Shown: in pieces, positions 298 to 12,733 of the stretch
How the letters are laid out: the number at the start of each line of letters is the position of its first letter
How positions within the stretch are numbered: the stretch's first letter is position 1
Notes under the pieces: model-generated
What the model saw: only the letters and a program-made list of their open reading frames with translations
The model's database searches: none
Told to the model about the DNA's origin: nothing
From: Nanobdellota archaeon
GTDB lineage: Archaea > Nanobdellota > Nanobdellia > Parvarchaeales > Parvarchaeaceae
Assembly (NCBI GenBank): GCA_021851145.1
Contig: JAJZJK010000003.1
Coordinates: 1-43,985 of the forward strand
Direction: 5' to 3'
Length of the DNA: 43,985 nucleotides
Translations under genes and position numbers: made by a program

Positions 298-1272
298 CTA
301 TTTTTTCTTGCTTTCAAAGAAGTATGAAAACAAGCTAAGCATAGAAGTAGCAGTTACAGATAAAAGAAGCAAACTAAATGCAAATGAAATGCCATAAGAT
401 GAATATGTGCCTGCAGCACCAAATCCAAATAGATAATTAAAACCGTAAGATAATGAACCTGAAATCTGCGTTAAGGGTAACCCTAAAATTGCATCCAAAA
501 ACATTGCAAATACAAACAATGCAGACAAGCTCCCTAAAATAAGCAGAGCATTTCTGTGCATTTTCTTGTTACCGTAAATAAGATATGTTAATATTATAGT
601 TAGAATAAAGAAAACTATGAGAATATCATAATGCAACATACCCGAGATTCTTAATAAACTGTCATAAGCTAAAAGATAAATTGCTGCTACTAAACTTAAA
701 ATAACCGATCCAAGTAGGGTATAGTTTGCCGCCTTTGCAAACTTTTTCTTCATCGAAAGCTCTAATCCAAATAGTATAACTATTACGGCTAGGAATATGC
801 TACCAACATAATCAAAGTAATTTATAGGCTTTGGAGTACTAACAACTGGAGGAGTTACACTTGGAGGTGTACTACTTGTTGAATTTACAACATTAACAGT
901 TAATTGCACTGGAGAAACGGAAGGATCGTCACCTGTTGCAGAAATGTTGAATTTATAAGTTCCAACAGGAGTTCCTTTAGCTACGCTTATAGTAAGTGTT
1001 CCGCTGTATGTTGGATCTTGATTTAAGGTACTAGGAGTAAAGGTTATATAACTGTTAGAAGGACTCTCTGCTAGCGAAGTCCCCCAATAGCTTCCATTAA
1101 ACAATGAAATTGTAAAGCCTATATTTATAGAACTGCTCTGCGAGATATTTACTGAATATTGTGTCAATGTAACTTTTGAATAACCATAGCCTACAGCATG
1201 AACGGCATTCAATGCGAACACTAAAAGAAAAATAAAAGCAATTGAAGTGAGTATTATTTGCTTAGCTTGCAT
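298..1272 (-). CDS. Membrane protein with signal peptide, extracellular Ser/Thr-rich beta (Ig-like) domain, Pro/Thr linker and about 5 TM helices
   Basis: Sequence composition and hydrophobic segments of the 324-aa ORF. Confidence 0.7.
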   Translation of the reverse strand: MQAKQIILTSIAFIFLLVFALNAVHAVGYGYSKVTLTQYSVNISQSSSINIGFTISLFNGSYWGTSLAESPSNSYITFTPSTLNQDPTYSGTLTISVAKGTPVGTYKFNISATGDDPSVSPVQLTVNVVNSTSSTPPSVTPPVVSTPKPINYFDYVGSIFLAVIVILFGLELSMKKKFAKAANYTLLGSVILSLVAAIYLLAYDSLLRISGMLHYDILIVFFILTIILTYLIYGNKKMHRNALLILGSLSALFVFAMFLDAILGLPLTQISGSLSYGFNYLFGFGAAGTYSSYGISFAFSLLLLSVTATSMLSLFSYFFESKKK

Positions 1273-1293
1273 AATAACCCTTAGGATAGCATC

Positions 1294-1716
1294 TTATTTA
1301 AGCATTTCTATAGACTTTGATATCTTTTCTTTAAAACCCTCTTCTTCTACTTCATCTTTGTACTTTGTTCTTGGCCACATAAAACCACGCAAAGGTTTAC
1401 CTTTTTCTCTAGGGATTATATGAACATGAAAATGTGGCACGCTTTGACTTACAACATTGTTATTTATAAGCAGGATTCCATCACAATTTGTTCCTTTCTT
1501 TACGCCCTCTGCTATTAATTTAGATTCAACTGCCAGTTCCTCTAAATAATCCTCCGGAAAATCAAATAATGTTTCGATATGCTCTTTTGGTATCAAAAGT
1601 GTATGCCCTTTGAATATAGGGCTTTTGTCTAAAAAAGCAATAAAACGATCGTTTTCAAAAACTATGCTTGCTTTAATTTCATTTTTGATTATTTTACAGA
1701 ATACGCATTCTTCCAC
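1294..1716 (-). CDS. hit: HIT family nucleotide hydrolase
   Basis: N-terminal CVFC, GHTLLIPK and QSVPHFHVHIIPR histidine triad. Confidence 0.95.
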   Translation of the reverse strand: MEECVFCKIIKNEIKASIVFENDRFIAFLDKSPIFKGHTLLIPKEHIETLFDFPEDYLEELAVESKLIAEGVKKGTNCDGILLINNNVVSQSVPHFHVHIIPREKGKPLRGFMWPRTKYKDEVEEEGFKEKISKSIEMLK

Positions 1717-1752
1717 TCATTATTTAGAAACTAAAAATATAAAAGAGTTTCA

Positions 1753-2391
1753 TTAATTATACTGTGCAATATCTAATATTGCAGTATTCATGCTTTCTTT
1801 TATTTCTTTCAAAGCCTTTGAATCCCTTGATTCCACGTACGGTAATAAATCTAAATCTAAAGGAGTGTTCTCCAGCCTTCTTTTATAGTTTTCATGCAGG
1901 TGCTTCCCAACTTCCTTATCATAATCCTGCCAGCTTACTCCCAAAAGCTTTATAAAATCCTTTTCAATTGAAGTTGCTAATTTATGTGAATATGCATATG
2001 AATAACCAAAATCAACAAGCCATTTTTCTGTAACTTCATGGTGCTTAGCTATGCTTTCCACAGTATCTATAATCTTATTGCCAACTGCCACTAATCTTGG
2101 AAAATTCTTATCCAAGAAGATTCTTTTCCCATCTACAGAGTACCCTCCTGTGTATTTTATGGAATAATCTGTATTTATTATCAGATCTTCTACACTTCTA
2201 TTTTCTATAACTTTTCCAATGTTTTTTTTCTTGAAGTACGCAATATCGTTATCTACCTGCACTATAAAATTTATCTTTAGTTTTTTATTCAACGAAATTT
2301 TTACCATTGAAGGAGAGATATAATTTATAGCTAGTGCTATAATCTGCCCATTTTCACTCTTTTTTTGAGATAAAATCCTATACTTCATCAT
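1753..2391 (-). CDS. Hypothetical protein with HExxE...H putative metal-binding motif
   Basis: GGYSVDGKRIFLD and HHEVTEKWL...AYSHKLA motifs. Confidence 0.6.
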   Translation of the reverse strand: MMKYRILSQKKSENGQIIALAINYISPSMVKISLNKKLKINFIVQVDNDIAYFKKKNIGKVIENRSVEDLIINTDYSIKYTGGYSVDGKRIFLDKNFPRLVAVGNKIIDTVESIAKHHEVTEKWLVDFGYSYAYSHKLATSIEKDFIKLLGVSWQDYDKEVGKHLHENYKRRLENTPLDLDLLPYVESRDSKALKEIKESMNTAILDIAQYN

Positions 2392-2587
2392 AATTTTAAT
2401 AATCCTCTGCGATATTTATACTTTTTTGCGATTAATTTGTAAATTTTACACATCATTTTAATTATTTATAAGTAATCAATATGATATATAAAGTTTGCTA
2501 TTTCCTTAATAAGCTAAAAAAATTCTCTTTAAAGATTTGGGTATAACAACACAAGTTACTTAAATTCTTAGAGATTTAATTAAAGGT

Positions 2588-3805
2588 ATGAATGATCAAA
2601 AATCAGAAATGCTAATGCTTTTTGGATGGGTTTTCGCAATAATGATCATAGCAGTTGTAATGCTGTTTCCTTACAGTAACTACCAATTTACAAGCCTTGG
2701 GATTAGTGACGGTGTAAATTTATATGCATGTAAATATGCAGAACCAGCACCAATGGGATTAGTTGACTACGGGGTCAGCAGTTATGGCAATGTTTACAAC
2801 ATATCTACACATTCTATTCAAAGTAGTATAACTTTAGATAATTTTGTAACAAACTTCAGTAATGATTACAACGCATCGATACAGCTTAATCTGAATGTTA
2901 TGTTAAGATACGAAAATAAGACACAGGCTTATTTTGCTCAGAATGTGATTCTCATGAATACTAAAACAAAGCAAATAAATTTTATAGATAATGTTTGGAA
3001 TGATTCCGGAATAAATGCTAGTTTGAGTACCAACTCAATAATGGGGAATGGGACGGTTTCTCCTTCAAACAAAAATATTACTTACTATTTTTATCAGGCA
3101 GAGAATCAAACCGGGGATAACCTAACACTAAAAAATAATCAAACGGTTTTCCTTAGAACAAATTCTAGTATATCAAGAAATGGAAAACCAGAAATAACAT
3201 TTTATTATAATGACGGCTATGGATGGGAGGAGTATGACAAAGTTGAATTACTTGTAAATGAGAGCATAAAAAACTACTCAATTGTGATAAGCGGTTTCAA
3301 TTATACCCCTAGTTATAATTTCTACGATGCAGGCATAATATTAGGGGGACCAGGTGATGGGTATAACACTACTCTTATAAACGGATCTGCATATCTAACA
3401 CTAAGTTATTGGAATGGCGATAATTTTCAGAATGTGCAGGATGCATATAACTTTGGATGTGATACAGAAGAAGGGATTAACAACGCAATTGTAAATCCGG
3501 ATTTCTATAGCAATGGATTATTATACGCAAATATAAGTAGTGGAAAGAATGCTTACCTCGGAAATTTATGGTCGATAAACTCTTCTGATATAGGTGTGCT
3601 TTACATAAACAGTTCAATAAAAAACATAGTTATTTCATTCAATAAAAATGGTCATACCTTTAACAATAGCTTAGAAAATGGCACGGGAGAATTTACCCTC
3701 GAGTCTGGTACATATCTTATAAAAGTATATAAAAATAAAAGTATAATCTATGATAAAAATTATACCTTAAAACAAGAAAAATTCAGTGTACTTAATATAA
3801 ATTGA
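2588..3805 (+). CDS. Thermopsin-family (peptidase A5) secreted acid protease
   Basis: PAPMGLVDYG, SIQLN, AQNV, IDNVWN, YDAGIILGGPGDG, NFGCDTEE; N-terminal TM anchor; many N-x-S/T sequons. Confidence 0.92.
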   Translation: MNDQKSEMLMLFGWVFAIMIIAVVMLFPYSNYQFTSLGISDGVNLYACKYAEPAPMGLVDYGVSSYGNVYNISTHSIQSSITLDNFVTNFSNDYNASIQLNLNVMLRYENKTQAYFAQNVILMNTKTKQINFIDNVWNDSGINASLSTNSIMGNGTVSPSNKNITYYFYQAENQTGDNLTLKNNQTVFLRTNSSISRNGKPEITFYYNDGYGWEEYDKVELLVNESIKNYSIVISGFNYTPSYNFYDAGIILGGPGDGYNTTLINGSAYLTLSYWNGDNFQNVQDAYNFGCDTEEGINNAIVNPDFYSNGLLYANISSGKNAYLGNLWSINSSDIGVLYINSSIKNIVISFNKNGHTFNNSLENGTGEFTLESGTYLIKVYKNKSIIYDKNYTLKQEKFSVLNIN

Positions 3806-8393: not shown

Positions 8394-8505
8394 TGGGGTT
8401 GCCAGGATTTGAACCTGGGTCAAGCGGTTTCTTCTTAATCATCCTTAACGTCATGTTTCCAGACAAGCTGGAGCCGCCTATTCTGCCTGGTTAGACTACA
8501 ACCCC
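8394..8505 (-). tRNA. trnW: tRNA-Trp(CCA) with 39-nt intron at 37/38
   Basis: GGGGTTG/CAACCCC acceptor stem, GGCGG-CTCCAG|intron|A-CCGCT anticodon arm, CCAGG-TTCAAAT-CCTGG T arm; CCA end not encoded. Confidence 0.95.
8429..8467 (-). other. tRNA-Trp intron (relaxed BHB; candidate minimal box C/D guide RNA)
   Basis: CTTGTCTGGAAACATGACGTTAAGGATGATTAAGAAGAA; bulges AG|C and AA|A around a CTCC/GAAG helix with one mismatch. Confidence 0.85.
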
Positions 8506-11722: not shown

Positions 11723-12733
11723 CTAATTAATCTTTTTGTACTGTGGATATGTGCCCAAACTCATTATTACGCTATCTGTTTTAACAGCTATTCCTTTTTT
11801 AAAGATCTTTATTTCCTCTGCTGACAATACAGATCTGCCAAGTGCTATCAATTCACCTTTCAATGTCATTATCCCCACTACTTCATCTTTTTCGAAATTA
11901 GTGAATTTAACTATACCGGGGACAGCAAGAGGTGAACCATGACAGATTGGATCTACTGCCCCATCAGAGATGAAAAGCTTTGGCAAAAAGTCTACCGCTG
12001 ACTCTATGCTGCCTAAACATTTGTTCAATAGTCTATCATCGTTTTCTTTTTCATAAAAATAAACCGCATCCTCTAAATCCTGTAATGTAACTAAATTATC
12101 TTTTTCTGATAATGTTGAAACCTTTGTTCTTCTTAATTCAGTCATGTGCGCACCTATTTTTAACTCTTCCCCCATGTCGTGTATAAGCTTCCTTATGTAT
12201 GTTCCAGATTCTACTCCAACTTTAAAAAGAACATCCTTCCCATTTATTTCTAATATATTAGAATAATAGATTTCTCTCTCCCTATACTGCCGCTTAACAT
12301 GAGACCTGACCGGCGGAAGTTGCATTATTTTTCCTATAAATTTGTTGAACGTATCTCTAAGTAATTGCTCATCAACTTCACTATGCAGATGCATCAGAGC
12401 TATGTATTCCTTTCCTCCAAAAAGAAGCACTGGGAGAACCTTTGTAGCGTTATTTATAGCTAATGGCAAAAGACCAGTTACGTTGGGATTTCTTCAATGT
12501 TCTAAAGTCCCTGAGTAACCCATCTTCTTTGCACCTAATACGGCCATAAGATTCTTGGCTATGTAGGCTGCGGTTTTAGACCTTATACCTGCTGGCTTAT
12601 CCAAAAGTACAAAACCGTAGTTTATCCTCTCCGGTATACTTCTATCCTTTGGAGCTTTACCGTATCTGCTGTCGGTTTCTTCCTCTCTCAAGGAAAAAAT
12701 TTCATGCTTGAAATCCTCCAAAGGCAGTTTCAT
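11723..12733 (-). CDS. cbf5: Cbf5 (TruB family) RNA-guided pseudouridine synthase, intron-containing: join(12733..12502,12489..11723), 332 aa
   Basis: Exon 1: GFVLLDKPAG...GYSGTL; exon 2: PNVTGLLP, KEY, QLPPVRSHVKR, SGTYIRKL.HD.G, HMTELRRT and PUA domain; removing 12 nt restores the catalytic TLDP. Confidence 0.93.
12490..12501 (-). other. 12-nt archaeal BHB/BHL-type mRNA intron in cbf5
   Basis: GGGA-CTTT-AG|AACATT-GAAG-AA|A-TCCC: GGGA/TCCC outer helix, CTTT/GAAG 4-bp central helix, AAA bulge; contains in-frame TGA; splits the Asp codon G|AT. Confidence 0.88.

Follow-up and report, generated by a model that had tools for sequence, protein, structure and literature searches.

How does an archaeon make a complete Cbf5, the pseudouridine synthase of rRNA and tRNA, when its cbf5 gene carries a stop codon where the catalytic Asp is expected? 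The question is raised by a 43,985-nt stretch of a Nanobdellota archaeon (Parvarchaeaceae; GenBank assembly GCA_021851145.1, contig JAJZJK010000003.1), which at its full length is called the window here. It belongs to a genome (G000) of 588 kb in 50 contigs, 63% complete, in which a profile search finds a single cbf5. An initial annotation of the window had proposed that 12 nt lying within the Asp codon are an intron removed by the tRNA splicing endonuclease, EndA. Our analysis leads to the same answer: the 12 nt are very probably a miniature archaeal intron of the bulge-helix-bulge (BHB) type in the cbf5 pre-mRNA, dependent on EndA for its removal. For cleavage, for ligation, and for EndA as the enzyme we rely on comparative evidence, by which the reading as a functional mini-intron is strongly supported.

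The gene lies on the minus strand (Table 1). Read from its ATG, the frame runs into an in-frame TGA, after which the same frame is open again as far as the terminal TAG. At the junction the sequence is GGG ACT TTA G^AACATTGAAGAA^AT CCC AAC GTA ACT GGT (carets mark the predicted cut sites here and below), which places the insert inside the catalytic Asp codon, between its first letter and its second; a repeated A leaves the insert boundary ambiguous by one nucleotide. Removal of the 12 nt turns G..AT into GAT, restores the motif G-T-L-D-P-N-V-T-G, and joins the two exons into a coding sequence of 999 nt. The initial annotation had described two cbf5 open reading frames (ORFs) in the same frame, a 999-nt coding sequence, a regained TruB/Cbf5 Asp motif, and an unspliced frame that ends at TGA; the ORFs, the translation, and the profile match bear all of this out. 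In the Cbf5 model NF003280, the 79-aa part of the gene occupies positions 3-67 and the 253-aa part positions 69-318 (293 bits), so that precisely the position of the catalytic Asp is missing. The match to the Cbf5 equivalog model scores 320.5 bits (cut-off 238) over profile positions 6-320, with one TGA within it. The catalytic Asp of the G-x-x-G-T-L-D-P motif is thus present only once the 12 nt are excised; congeners that have no insert encode GTLDP directly.

In the minimum-energy fold of the transcript (ViennaRNA) two helices form, one of GGGA and UCCC, the other of CUUU(A) and (U)GAAG, and AAA bulges out. A 61-nt stretch folds with z = -3.42 (0 of 200 shuffles as stable) and a 33-nt stretch with z = -2.06 (9 of 200). 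The helices and bulges are as the initial annotation had drawn them, both in this fold and in the alignment of carriers described below. On the 3' side, the motif has a 3-nt bulge, an implied cut after the second bulge base, and a flanking outer helix. The remainder of the insert reads A-CAU-U, and the inner helix h' amounts to at most one A-U pair round three bases. In the strict form of the motif, hBHBh', the 3-nt 5' bulge is closed by such an inner helix; with one possible A-U pair in its place, the motif is a relaxed BHB of a bulge-helix-loop-like form. Apart from the reduced inner helix, the layout matches an anticodon arm that carries its intron at 37/38. The cut sites that are needed for restoration of the protein coincide with the EndA rule, and we agree from sequence and fold with the earlier placement of the cuts after the second bulge base. 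Rfam returned two weak matches far under their gathering scores (SNORD82, E 0.52; RT-11, E 1.8), which leaves the motif outside its curated families.

Table 1. Coordinates of cbf5, its predicted splicing motif, and a nearby tRNA gene in the window
Feature	Position in window	Strand	Remarks
cbf5 gene	11723-12733	minus	ATG 12733-12731, TAG 11725-11723
cbf5 exon 1, 232 nt	12502-12733	minus	ends at G, first letter of catalytic Asp codon (12502)
Predicted intron AACATTGAAGAA, 12 nt	12490-12501 (equally 12489-12500)	minus	in-frame TGA 12496-12494
cbf5 exon 2, 767 nt including TAG	11723-12489	minus	opens with AT of Asp codon, then P-N-V-T-G
Predicted splicing motif, GGGA to UCCC, 27 nt, GGGACTTTAGAACATTGAAGAAATCCC	12485-12511	minus	from fold and alignment
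Outer helix h	GGGA 12511-12508 with UCCC 12488-12485	minus	
Central helix H, 4 bp	CUUU 12507-12504 with GAAG 12495-12492	minus	
3' bulge AA^A	12491-12489	minus	between GAAG and UCCC
5' site AG^A	12503-12501	minus	bulge closed solely by A12500-U12496 round 3-nt loop
Predicted tRNA-Trp(CCA)	8394-8505	minus	ARAGORN; 39-nt intron at 37/38

Taken together, these parts suggest the following course of events. In the transcript, exon GGGA and UCCC would pair as the outer helix, and the 4-bp central helix would arise from exon CUUU and intron GAAG. The 3' cut would fall after the second base of the AAA bulge, as the EndA rule demands, and the 5' cut after AG, at the symmetric place on the opposite strand, in the cut geometry of a pre-tRNA anticodon arm with a 37/38 intron. 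After cleavage at both sites by a single EndA of alpha4 type, ligation of the exons by RtcB would recreate the GAT of the catalytic Asp and give an active Cbf5 of 332 aa. An unspliced mRNA would terminate at UGA after 79 codons.

This course is supported by the pattern of conservation within the genus. Each of its 33 species genomes has exactly one cbf5; an in-frame stop is found at the Asp codon in 24 of them and in none of the other 9. Junctions were read in all 24 carriers, and every one has a 12-nt insert in the same codon. We aligned the carriers together with two Aenigmatarchaeota sequences that also have 12-nt inserts, giving 22 distinct rows, in which every cell (100%) of helices h and H is paired. 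The bases of both helices and of both cut sites are invariant except in two columns. One of these, column 18/31, is compensatory: G043 and the two Aenigmatarchaeota, 3 distinct rows in all, have C-G in place of U-A. In the other, UCCC ends in C or U, both of which pair with G (G-C to G-U in 5 rows). The alignment of cbf5 for covarying inserts, which the initial annotation had proposed as a check, thus does reveal covariation at the Asp codon in the genus and its relatives. The part of the insert that varies freely is confined to three loop bases (12497-12499 in the window), which occur as CAT, GAT, AAT, TAT, GAC, GCT, GCC, TAA, and CAA. In one species, G042, the insert holds two stops, TAA TGA.

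The exon bases that take part in the motif are held just as tightly. The G-T-L codons are GGG ACT/ACC TTA in 24 of 24 carriers, and in 7 insert-less congeners they are GGT/GGC, ACG/ACC/ACT/ACA, and CTT/TTA/CTG/CTC. Synonymous sites elsewhere in the gene are near saturation, with a median proportion of synonymous differences (pS) of 0.69 for exon 1 and 0.76 for exon 2, and the ratio of nonsynonymous to synonymous rates (dN/dS) points to purifying selection on both parts (median 0.13 and 0.06, respectively); these values are from 23 carriers, G044 being omitted for a gene cut by a contig end. The two halves of the Asp codon, G..AT, are invariant across the carriers. The stretch from the stop to the next start (N-P-N-V-T-G-L) preserves its residues despite synonymous changes, which indicates that it is translated in this frame.

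The insert is also retained in public sequencing data. It is present in contigs from 4 public DNA runs, with no indel or joint at the site, although two of the four look like one data set deposited twice; the sole variant inside the insert among these contigs is at 12499, a loop base. The stretch is at least partly present in 20 of 21 listed sequencing runs, none of which is an RNA run, and the runs that contain it are of mine-drainage and tailings origin. DNA reads lacking the 12 nt, or a second intact cbf5 beside a decaying copy, had been named at the outset as findings that would speak against an intron; the DNA contigs keep the insert, and no second intact copy was found in the 33 genomes. 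As a separate observation on this gene, the cbf5 of G031 (G031:C60:2147-3101; L040, L092, L112) lies in two overlapping frames at profile position 92, away from the Asp codon, a frameshift that is either an assembly error or real.

Relatives of the genus place the 12-nt insert in a wider family. A search of 401 genomes of the class, followed by 55 chosen genomes, reveals that many other genera have a cbf5 interrupted at profile position 69-71, and all junctions that were read outside the genus have the form G^insert^AT at the Asp codon. The inserts measure 16 nt in the sister genus g18 (G102, G116, G197, G235), 15 nt in g19 (G184), and in other members of the class 13 nt (G114, G189), 14 nt (G368), 18 nt (G202), 19 nt (G323, G096, G395), 22 nt (G198, G335, G305), 23 nt (G353), 29 nt (G144), and 34 nt (G232). 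Within this range of 13-34 nt, the longer inserts have an inner helix of 3-9 bp and are canonical hBHBh' motifs, and the central helix covaries (CUUU/AAAG, CCUU/AAGG, CCUU/GAGG, CUCU/AGAG, CUCU/GGAG, CACU/AGUG). In a pattern census, 45 of the 401 genomes match the intron context: 24 of 33 of the genus, 4 of 5 of g18, 1 of 2 of g19, and 16 in 15 further genera. G144 escapes the pattern, and the reversed control pattern matches none. Seen beside the canonical, covarying longer inserts of its relatives, the 12-nt form is thus the short extreme of a series of ordinary BHB introns. Elsewhere in the class, cbf5 is interrupted in another manner: in G216 (L294; G216:C17:17700-20900, ORF 314-2944, minus strand) an 876-aa frame has its TruB, DKCLD, and PUA domains broken by a LAGLIDADG intein, and in G154, G378, G208, and G371 the Cbf5 profile is likewise split, at about position 170, in frames of 820-841 aa.

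A Cbf5 tree of 36 rows was built with the insert positions masked. The genus contributes 25 rows and other genera of its class the remaining 11; G041-G048 are left out, and L009 and L012 were missed by the motif filter. In this tree the 7 insert-less species form one clade (99/93), and all other rows of the genus, 18 of them, are carriers. The best tree requires two changes, and a single change is also compatible. On either reading, the tree points to long retention of the insert and to one clean loss or absence in a subclade, which resembles the pattern that Yokobori et al. described in Desulfurococcales, as far as their text was available (PMC2738675).

The enzymes that splicing would need are present. 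EndA in G000 (contig C25; L002:1477-2007, minus strand) is a single ORF of 177 aa with both the N-terminal and the catalytic domain (PF02778, 49.3 bits; PF01974, 95.8 bits), and RtcB is present at 501 bits. Each of the 33 genomes of the genus has one EndA locus, with an open frame of 172-214 aa (two contigs share that of G021, and a contig end truncates that of G042). Residues 10-176 of the G000 enzyme align to residues 5-170 of the alpha4 enzyme of M. jannaschii, 1a79 (E 1.4e-30), and by this alignment the G000 EndA is predicted to be of alpha4 type. Accessible text of Fujishima 2011 likewise ascribes single 177-aa alpha4 enzymes to ARMAN-4 and -5, together with about 15% disrupted tRNA genes (PMC3239211). 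In G000, ARAGORN predicts 39 tRNAs, 8 of them with introns. One, a tRNA-Thr(UGU) (L263; G000:C17:6285-6367, minus strand), has an 11-nt intron, aaaaacaagaa, that is helix-less as well: a single bulged base and a loop of 4 nt are followed by CAAG, which pairs with CUUG in the anticodon loop, and then comes an AA^A bulge. As a precedent within the same genome, this predicted intron is a weak one. A second predicted tRNA-Thr(UGU), on contig C1, has a 38-nt intron likewise ending in caagaa, and the predicted tRNA-Trp(CCA) intron in the window, 4 kb from cbf5, would be a further substrate of the same endonuclease. A scan of G000 for coding-frame inserts that have two 4-bp helices and whose excision would join two open frames tested 20,575 candidates and gave well over 100 fusions, cbf5 included; the filter is too loose to name more introns, and many of the fusions presumably join neighbouring genes.

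Several observations weigh against removal by this enzyme, and they come down to one real tension, between a motif without an inner helix and a host whose endonuclease belongs to the "strict" type. The 5' site lies in a loop closed by no more than one A-U pair, so that there is no real inner helix. In the text available of Kaneta 2018 (PMC5829648), cutting of relaxed motifs is shown only for (alpha-beta)2 and epsilon2 enzymes with a specific loop, and the L3 loop of DPANN enzymes is given as missing in Parvarchaeum ARMAN-4; the alignment of G000 EndA over residues 10-176 contains no large insert relative to 1a79. The 11-nt form of the tRNA-Thr intron was sought in the 32 congeners and is absent from them, the 5' half alone giving matches. 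At 63% completeness, a second endonuclease subunit in G000 could be missed, yet there is one EndA locus per genome genus-wide.

The same tension is what lends some weight to the possibility that the 12 nt are excised from the RNA by a non-classical route, through another nuclease or through EndA with a helper factor. The literature, in the portions at hand, states that alpha4 enzymes need a strict motif (PMC5829648, PMC3239211), and the G000 enzyme has no large insert relative to 1a79. We nevertheless regard this route as very improbable: the cut sites implied by restoration of the protein match the EndA rule exactly, helix, 3-nt bulge, and 4-bp helix make up a canonical 3' half of the motif, sister genera bear full bulge-helix-bulge forms at the same site, and no other candidate enzyme was identified. 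If the RNA were left uncut instead, the ribosome would have to read TGA as a residue or bypass the insert. Such recoding finds some encouragement in the insert itself, which keeps the reading frame (its length is divisible by three) and in 23 of 24 species has one TGA as its only stop, and in a local hairpin that could in principle act as a stimulator. Against it, read-through would turn the Asp into five residues of which the second varies freely (H, D, N, Y, A) while the adjacent synonymous sites are frozen, a pattern of RNA structure rather than of coding. The TAA TGA of the G042 insert leaves a frame that TGA-as-residue cannot rescue, and the inserts of relatives include lengths that are not multiples of three (13, 14, 16, 19, 22, 23, and 29 nt). 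TGA also ends 82 of 358 frames of at least 200 codons in G000, and the subsequent open stretch has a median of 6.5 codons, compared with 8 after TAA and 9 after TAG; being as short as after the other two stops, it marks TGA as an ordinary stop genome-wide. These findings make recoding very improbable. A bypass hop between GAA codons was considered and rejected, since the sequence gives the wrong landing frame.

DPANN genomes are reduced and known for split genes, and gene callers do file this cbf5 as split, the ORFs of a congener standing as separate public entries. The insert could accordingly be a lesion in a split or decaying gene that yields two polypeptides (79 aa and about 223-248 aa), or none, without the catalytic Asp. 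This, too, we hold to be very unlikely. A lesion would hardly be retained in 24 species with frozen flanks and strong purifying selection on both parts; N-P-N-V-T-G-L, which precedes the next start, keeps its residues through synonymous changes and hence is translated in frame; neither piece has the catalytic Asp, yet the G..AT halves of its codon are invariant; and a second cbf5 that might take over is found in 0 of 33 genomes. An assembly or sequencing artefact has nothing in its favor beyond the fragmented assembly (50 contigs, 63% complete), and the recurrence of the insert in 24 separately assembled species genomes and in contigs from 4 public DNA runs, which show no indel or joint at the site, makes its probability vanishingly small. 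The comparisons thus indicate that the insert is neither an error nor the mark of a decaying gene, and they favor the EndA-dependent mini-intron.

The intron context is not confined to the class. We scanned species-representative genomes with a pattern that fixed GGGAC.YTAG, ATCC, and some downstream Cbf5 codons and left helix H free, a design that recovers GGG-ACN-YTA versions only. At least 119 stretches were found, of which 80 were resolved to loci (L144-L223). All 80 have the Cbf5 context, G/S-x-x-G-T-L upstream and P-x-V-T-G-x-L-P downstream; H is paired at 4 of 4 positions in 73 and at 3 of 4 in 7, and the inserts are 11-40 nt long. At least 11 paired versions of the central helix occur across lineages, among them CUUU/GAAG, CUUU/AAAG, CCUU/AAGG, CCUU/GAGG, CUCU/AGAG, CUCU/GGAG, CACU/AGUG, and CCCU/GGGG. 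Counted by record title among the 80 matched loci, with the labels of metagenome-assembled genomes (MAGs) as deposited, there are at least 49 loci in Bathyarchaeota/Bathyarchaeia, at least 7 in Woesearchaeota, at least 6 in Sulfolobales/Desulfurococcales/Acidilobales (the known hosts), at least 2 in other Thermoproteota, and at least 3 in Nanoarchaeota. Parvarchaeota, Aenigmatarchaeota, Jordarchaeia, and archaea without further title account for at least 2 each, and Heimdallarchaeota, Borrarchaeum, a Methanosarcinales MAG, and a Nitrososphaerota MAG for at least 1 each; the Jordarchaeia, Heimdallarchaeota, and Borrarchaeum records bring Asgard lineages into the set. At least 1 more comes from a "Terriglobia bacterium" MAG and is most likely on a misbinned archaeal contig. 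The same Asp-codon intron context is therefore widespread in Archaea and is no peculiarity of one lineage.

Individual loci in this set bear on the minimal form. A scaffold of Candidatus Parvarchaeum acidophilus ARMAN-5 (L170) has the same 12-nt insert, and some 12-nt loci titled Woesearchaeota or Nanoarchaeota carry Parvarchaeum-type sequence. The two Aenigmatarchaeota loci (L193 and L221) have a 12-nt insert, AAAATTGAGGAA, that is near-identical in design to that of Parvarchaeum, within a distinct Cbf5 (GHAGTL...PxVTGVLPVA). Either transfer or convergence on a minimal form could account for the likeness. At L168 and L200, 11-nt inserts, AGAGGGGGGAG and GGGCTGGGGAA, interrupt the same codon and are one nucleotide shorter than that of the window. 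The initial annotation's description of the window intron as extremely short holds for its 12 nt, and it does not extend to shortest, since the 11-nt inserts sit at the same site in two other lineages. The "Terriglobia bacterium" MAG (L191) has an archaeal-type cbf5 with a 20-nt insert closely like that of Bathyarchaeia L161, and its contig has probably been misbinned.

With this distribution in view, a pan-archaeal history of the Asp-codon intron is possible, and we hold it only tentatively: the intron may have been inherited early and lost many times, or gained repeatedly, with the Parvarchaeum form whittled to 12 nt and still cut by an alpha4 enzyme. Under repeated gain, the exon sequence GGGAC.YUAG/AUCC. 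itself may mimic a tRNA anticodon arm. If this history is true, alpha4 enzymes accept a broader set of substrates than they are credited with, and throughout Archaea the synthesis of Cbf5 is linked to the capacity for tRNA splicing.

Introns in archaeal protein genes are nearly unknown, and the one in the Asp codon of cbf5 now extends to DPANN; its wide spread over archaeal phyla is a larger lead than the single locus. Twelve nucleotides without an inner helix come close to the smallest substrate imaginable for a splicing endonuclease and, in a host whose enzyme type is held to be strict, they offer a natural test of the substrate rules. If the insert is spliced as proposed, the output of the rRNA/tRNA pseudouridine synthase would be tied to the tRNA-splicing machinery. 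There is a practical side as well. The ORFs of a congener (L074) stand in public collections as a "hypothetical protein" of 79 aa and a "PUA domain containing protein" of 223 aa, just as the initial annotation had anticipated that pipelines would miscall a split gene. Gene callers that halve cbf5 and drop its catalytic residue affect completeness and metabolic calls for many uncultivated archaea.

How does the window insert compare with known systems? Its closest counterpart is the crenarchaeal cbf5 intron (Yokobori 2009, and Watanabe 2002 as cited there), which the initial annotation had cited as a known BHB intron at this codon. The site is indeed identical: in Yokobori 2009, by the text available, the intron separates the first letter of the catalytic Asp codon from the second, measures 16-44 bp, and occurs in Desulfurococcales and Sulfolobales only, with secondary losses, N. 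equitans cbf5 being intron-less (PMC2738675). Gene, codon, and phase are thus common to both; in both the BHB-type motif consists partly of exon bases, excision is required for an active enzyme, and presence is patchy with loss in a subclade. The window insert differs in its 12 nt, below the crenarchaeal 16-44 bp, in having no inner helix, and in its host, a DPANN member of the Parvarchaeum group with a single EndA of predicted alpha4 type, whereas the crenarchaeal hosts have an (alpha-beta)2 enzyme. Splicing of the crenarchaeal intron is known from experiment (PMC2738675); for the window insert it is deduced from sequence. A literature search, mostly of openly available journals and in part of their text, found no report of a cbf5 intron outside Crenarchaeota, which agrees with the initial annotation, to which no description of it in this lineage was known. 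The main text of Fujishima 2011, in the portion available, makes no mention of cbf5 or mRNA (PMC3239211), and the term cbf5 is absent from recent preprints on Nanobdellota genomes and Asgard tRNA introns.

In geometry, the insert is closest to the 37/38 introns of pre-tRNAs, which include the relaxed forms HBh', hBH, and bulge-helix-loop in the accessible parts of PMC5829648 and PMC3239211. It shares with them the parts of an anticodon arm, namely a 4-bp stem, a CUUUAG^A loop, a 4-bp exon-intron helix, and a 3-nt 3' bulge. Its size is near the lower end of archaeal tRNA introns (11-175 nt, as quoted in the available text of PMC2738675), and the same enzymes would act on it. Unlike pre-tRNA introns, it sits in a protein-coding frame, with no mature tRNA body to aid recognition. 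The BHB intron in the 5' untranslated region of Haloferax volcanii HVO_1309 is likewise an mRNA substrate of the tRNA splicing endonuclease, but it lies in an untranslated leader, interrupts no codon, and belongs to another gene and phylum; in the text available of Schwarz 2020 (PMC7714728), no further BHB intron is said to be reported in archaeal mRNA besides that of crenarchaeal cbf5. The inteins in the cbf5 genes of five class genomes also interrupt an essential gene, as do the split genes of reduced archaea. Inteins are excised at the protein level and sit at another site, around profile position 170; the 12-nt insert encodes a stop and therefore cannot be an intein. Set against these systems, the BHB intron of cbf5 is what was known, and the novelty lies in the lineage that hosts it, in its size, and in an inner helix that has been lost.

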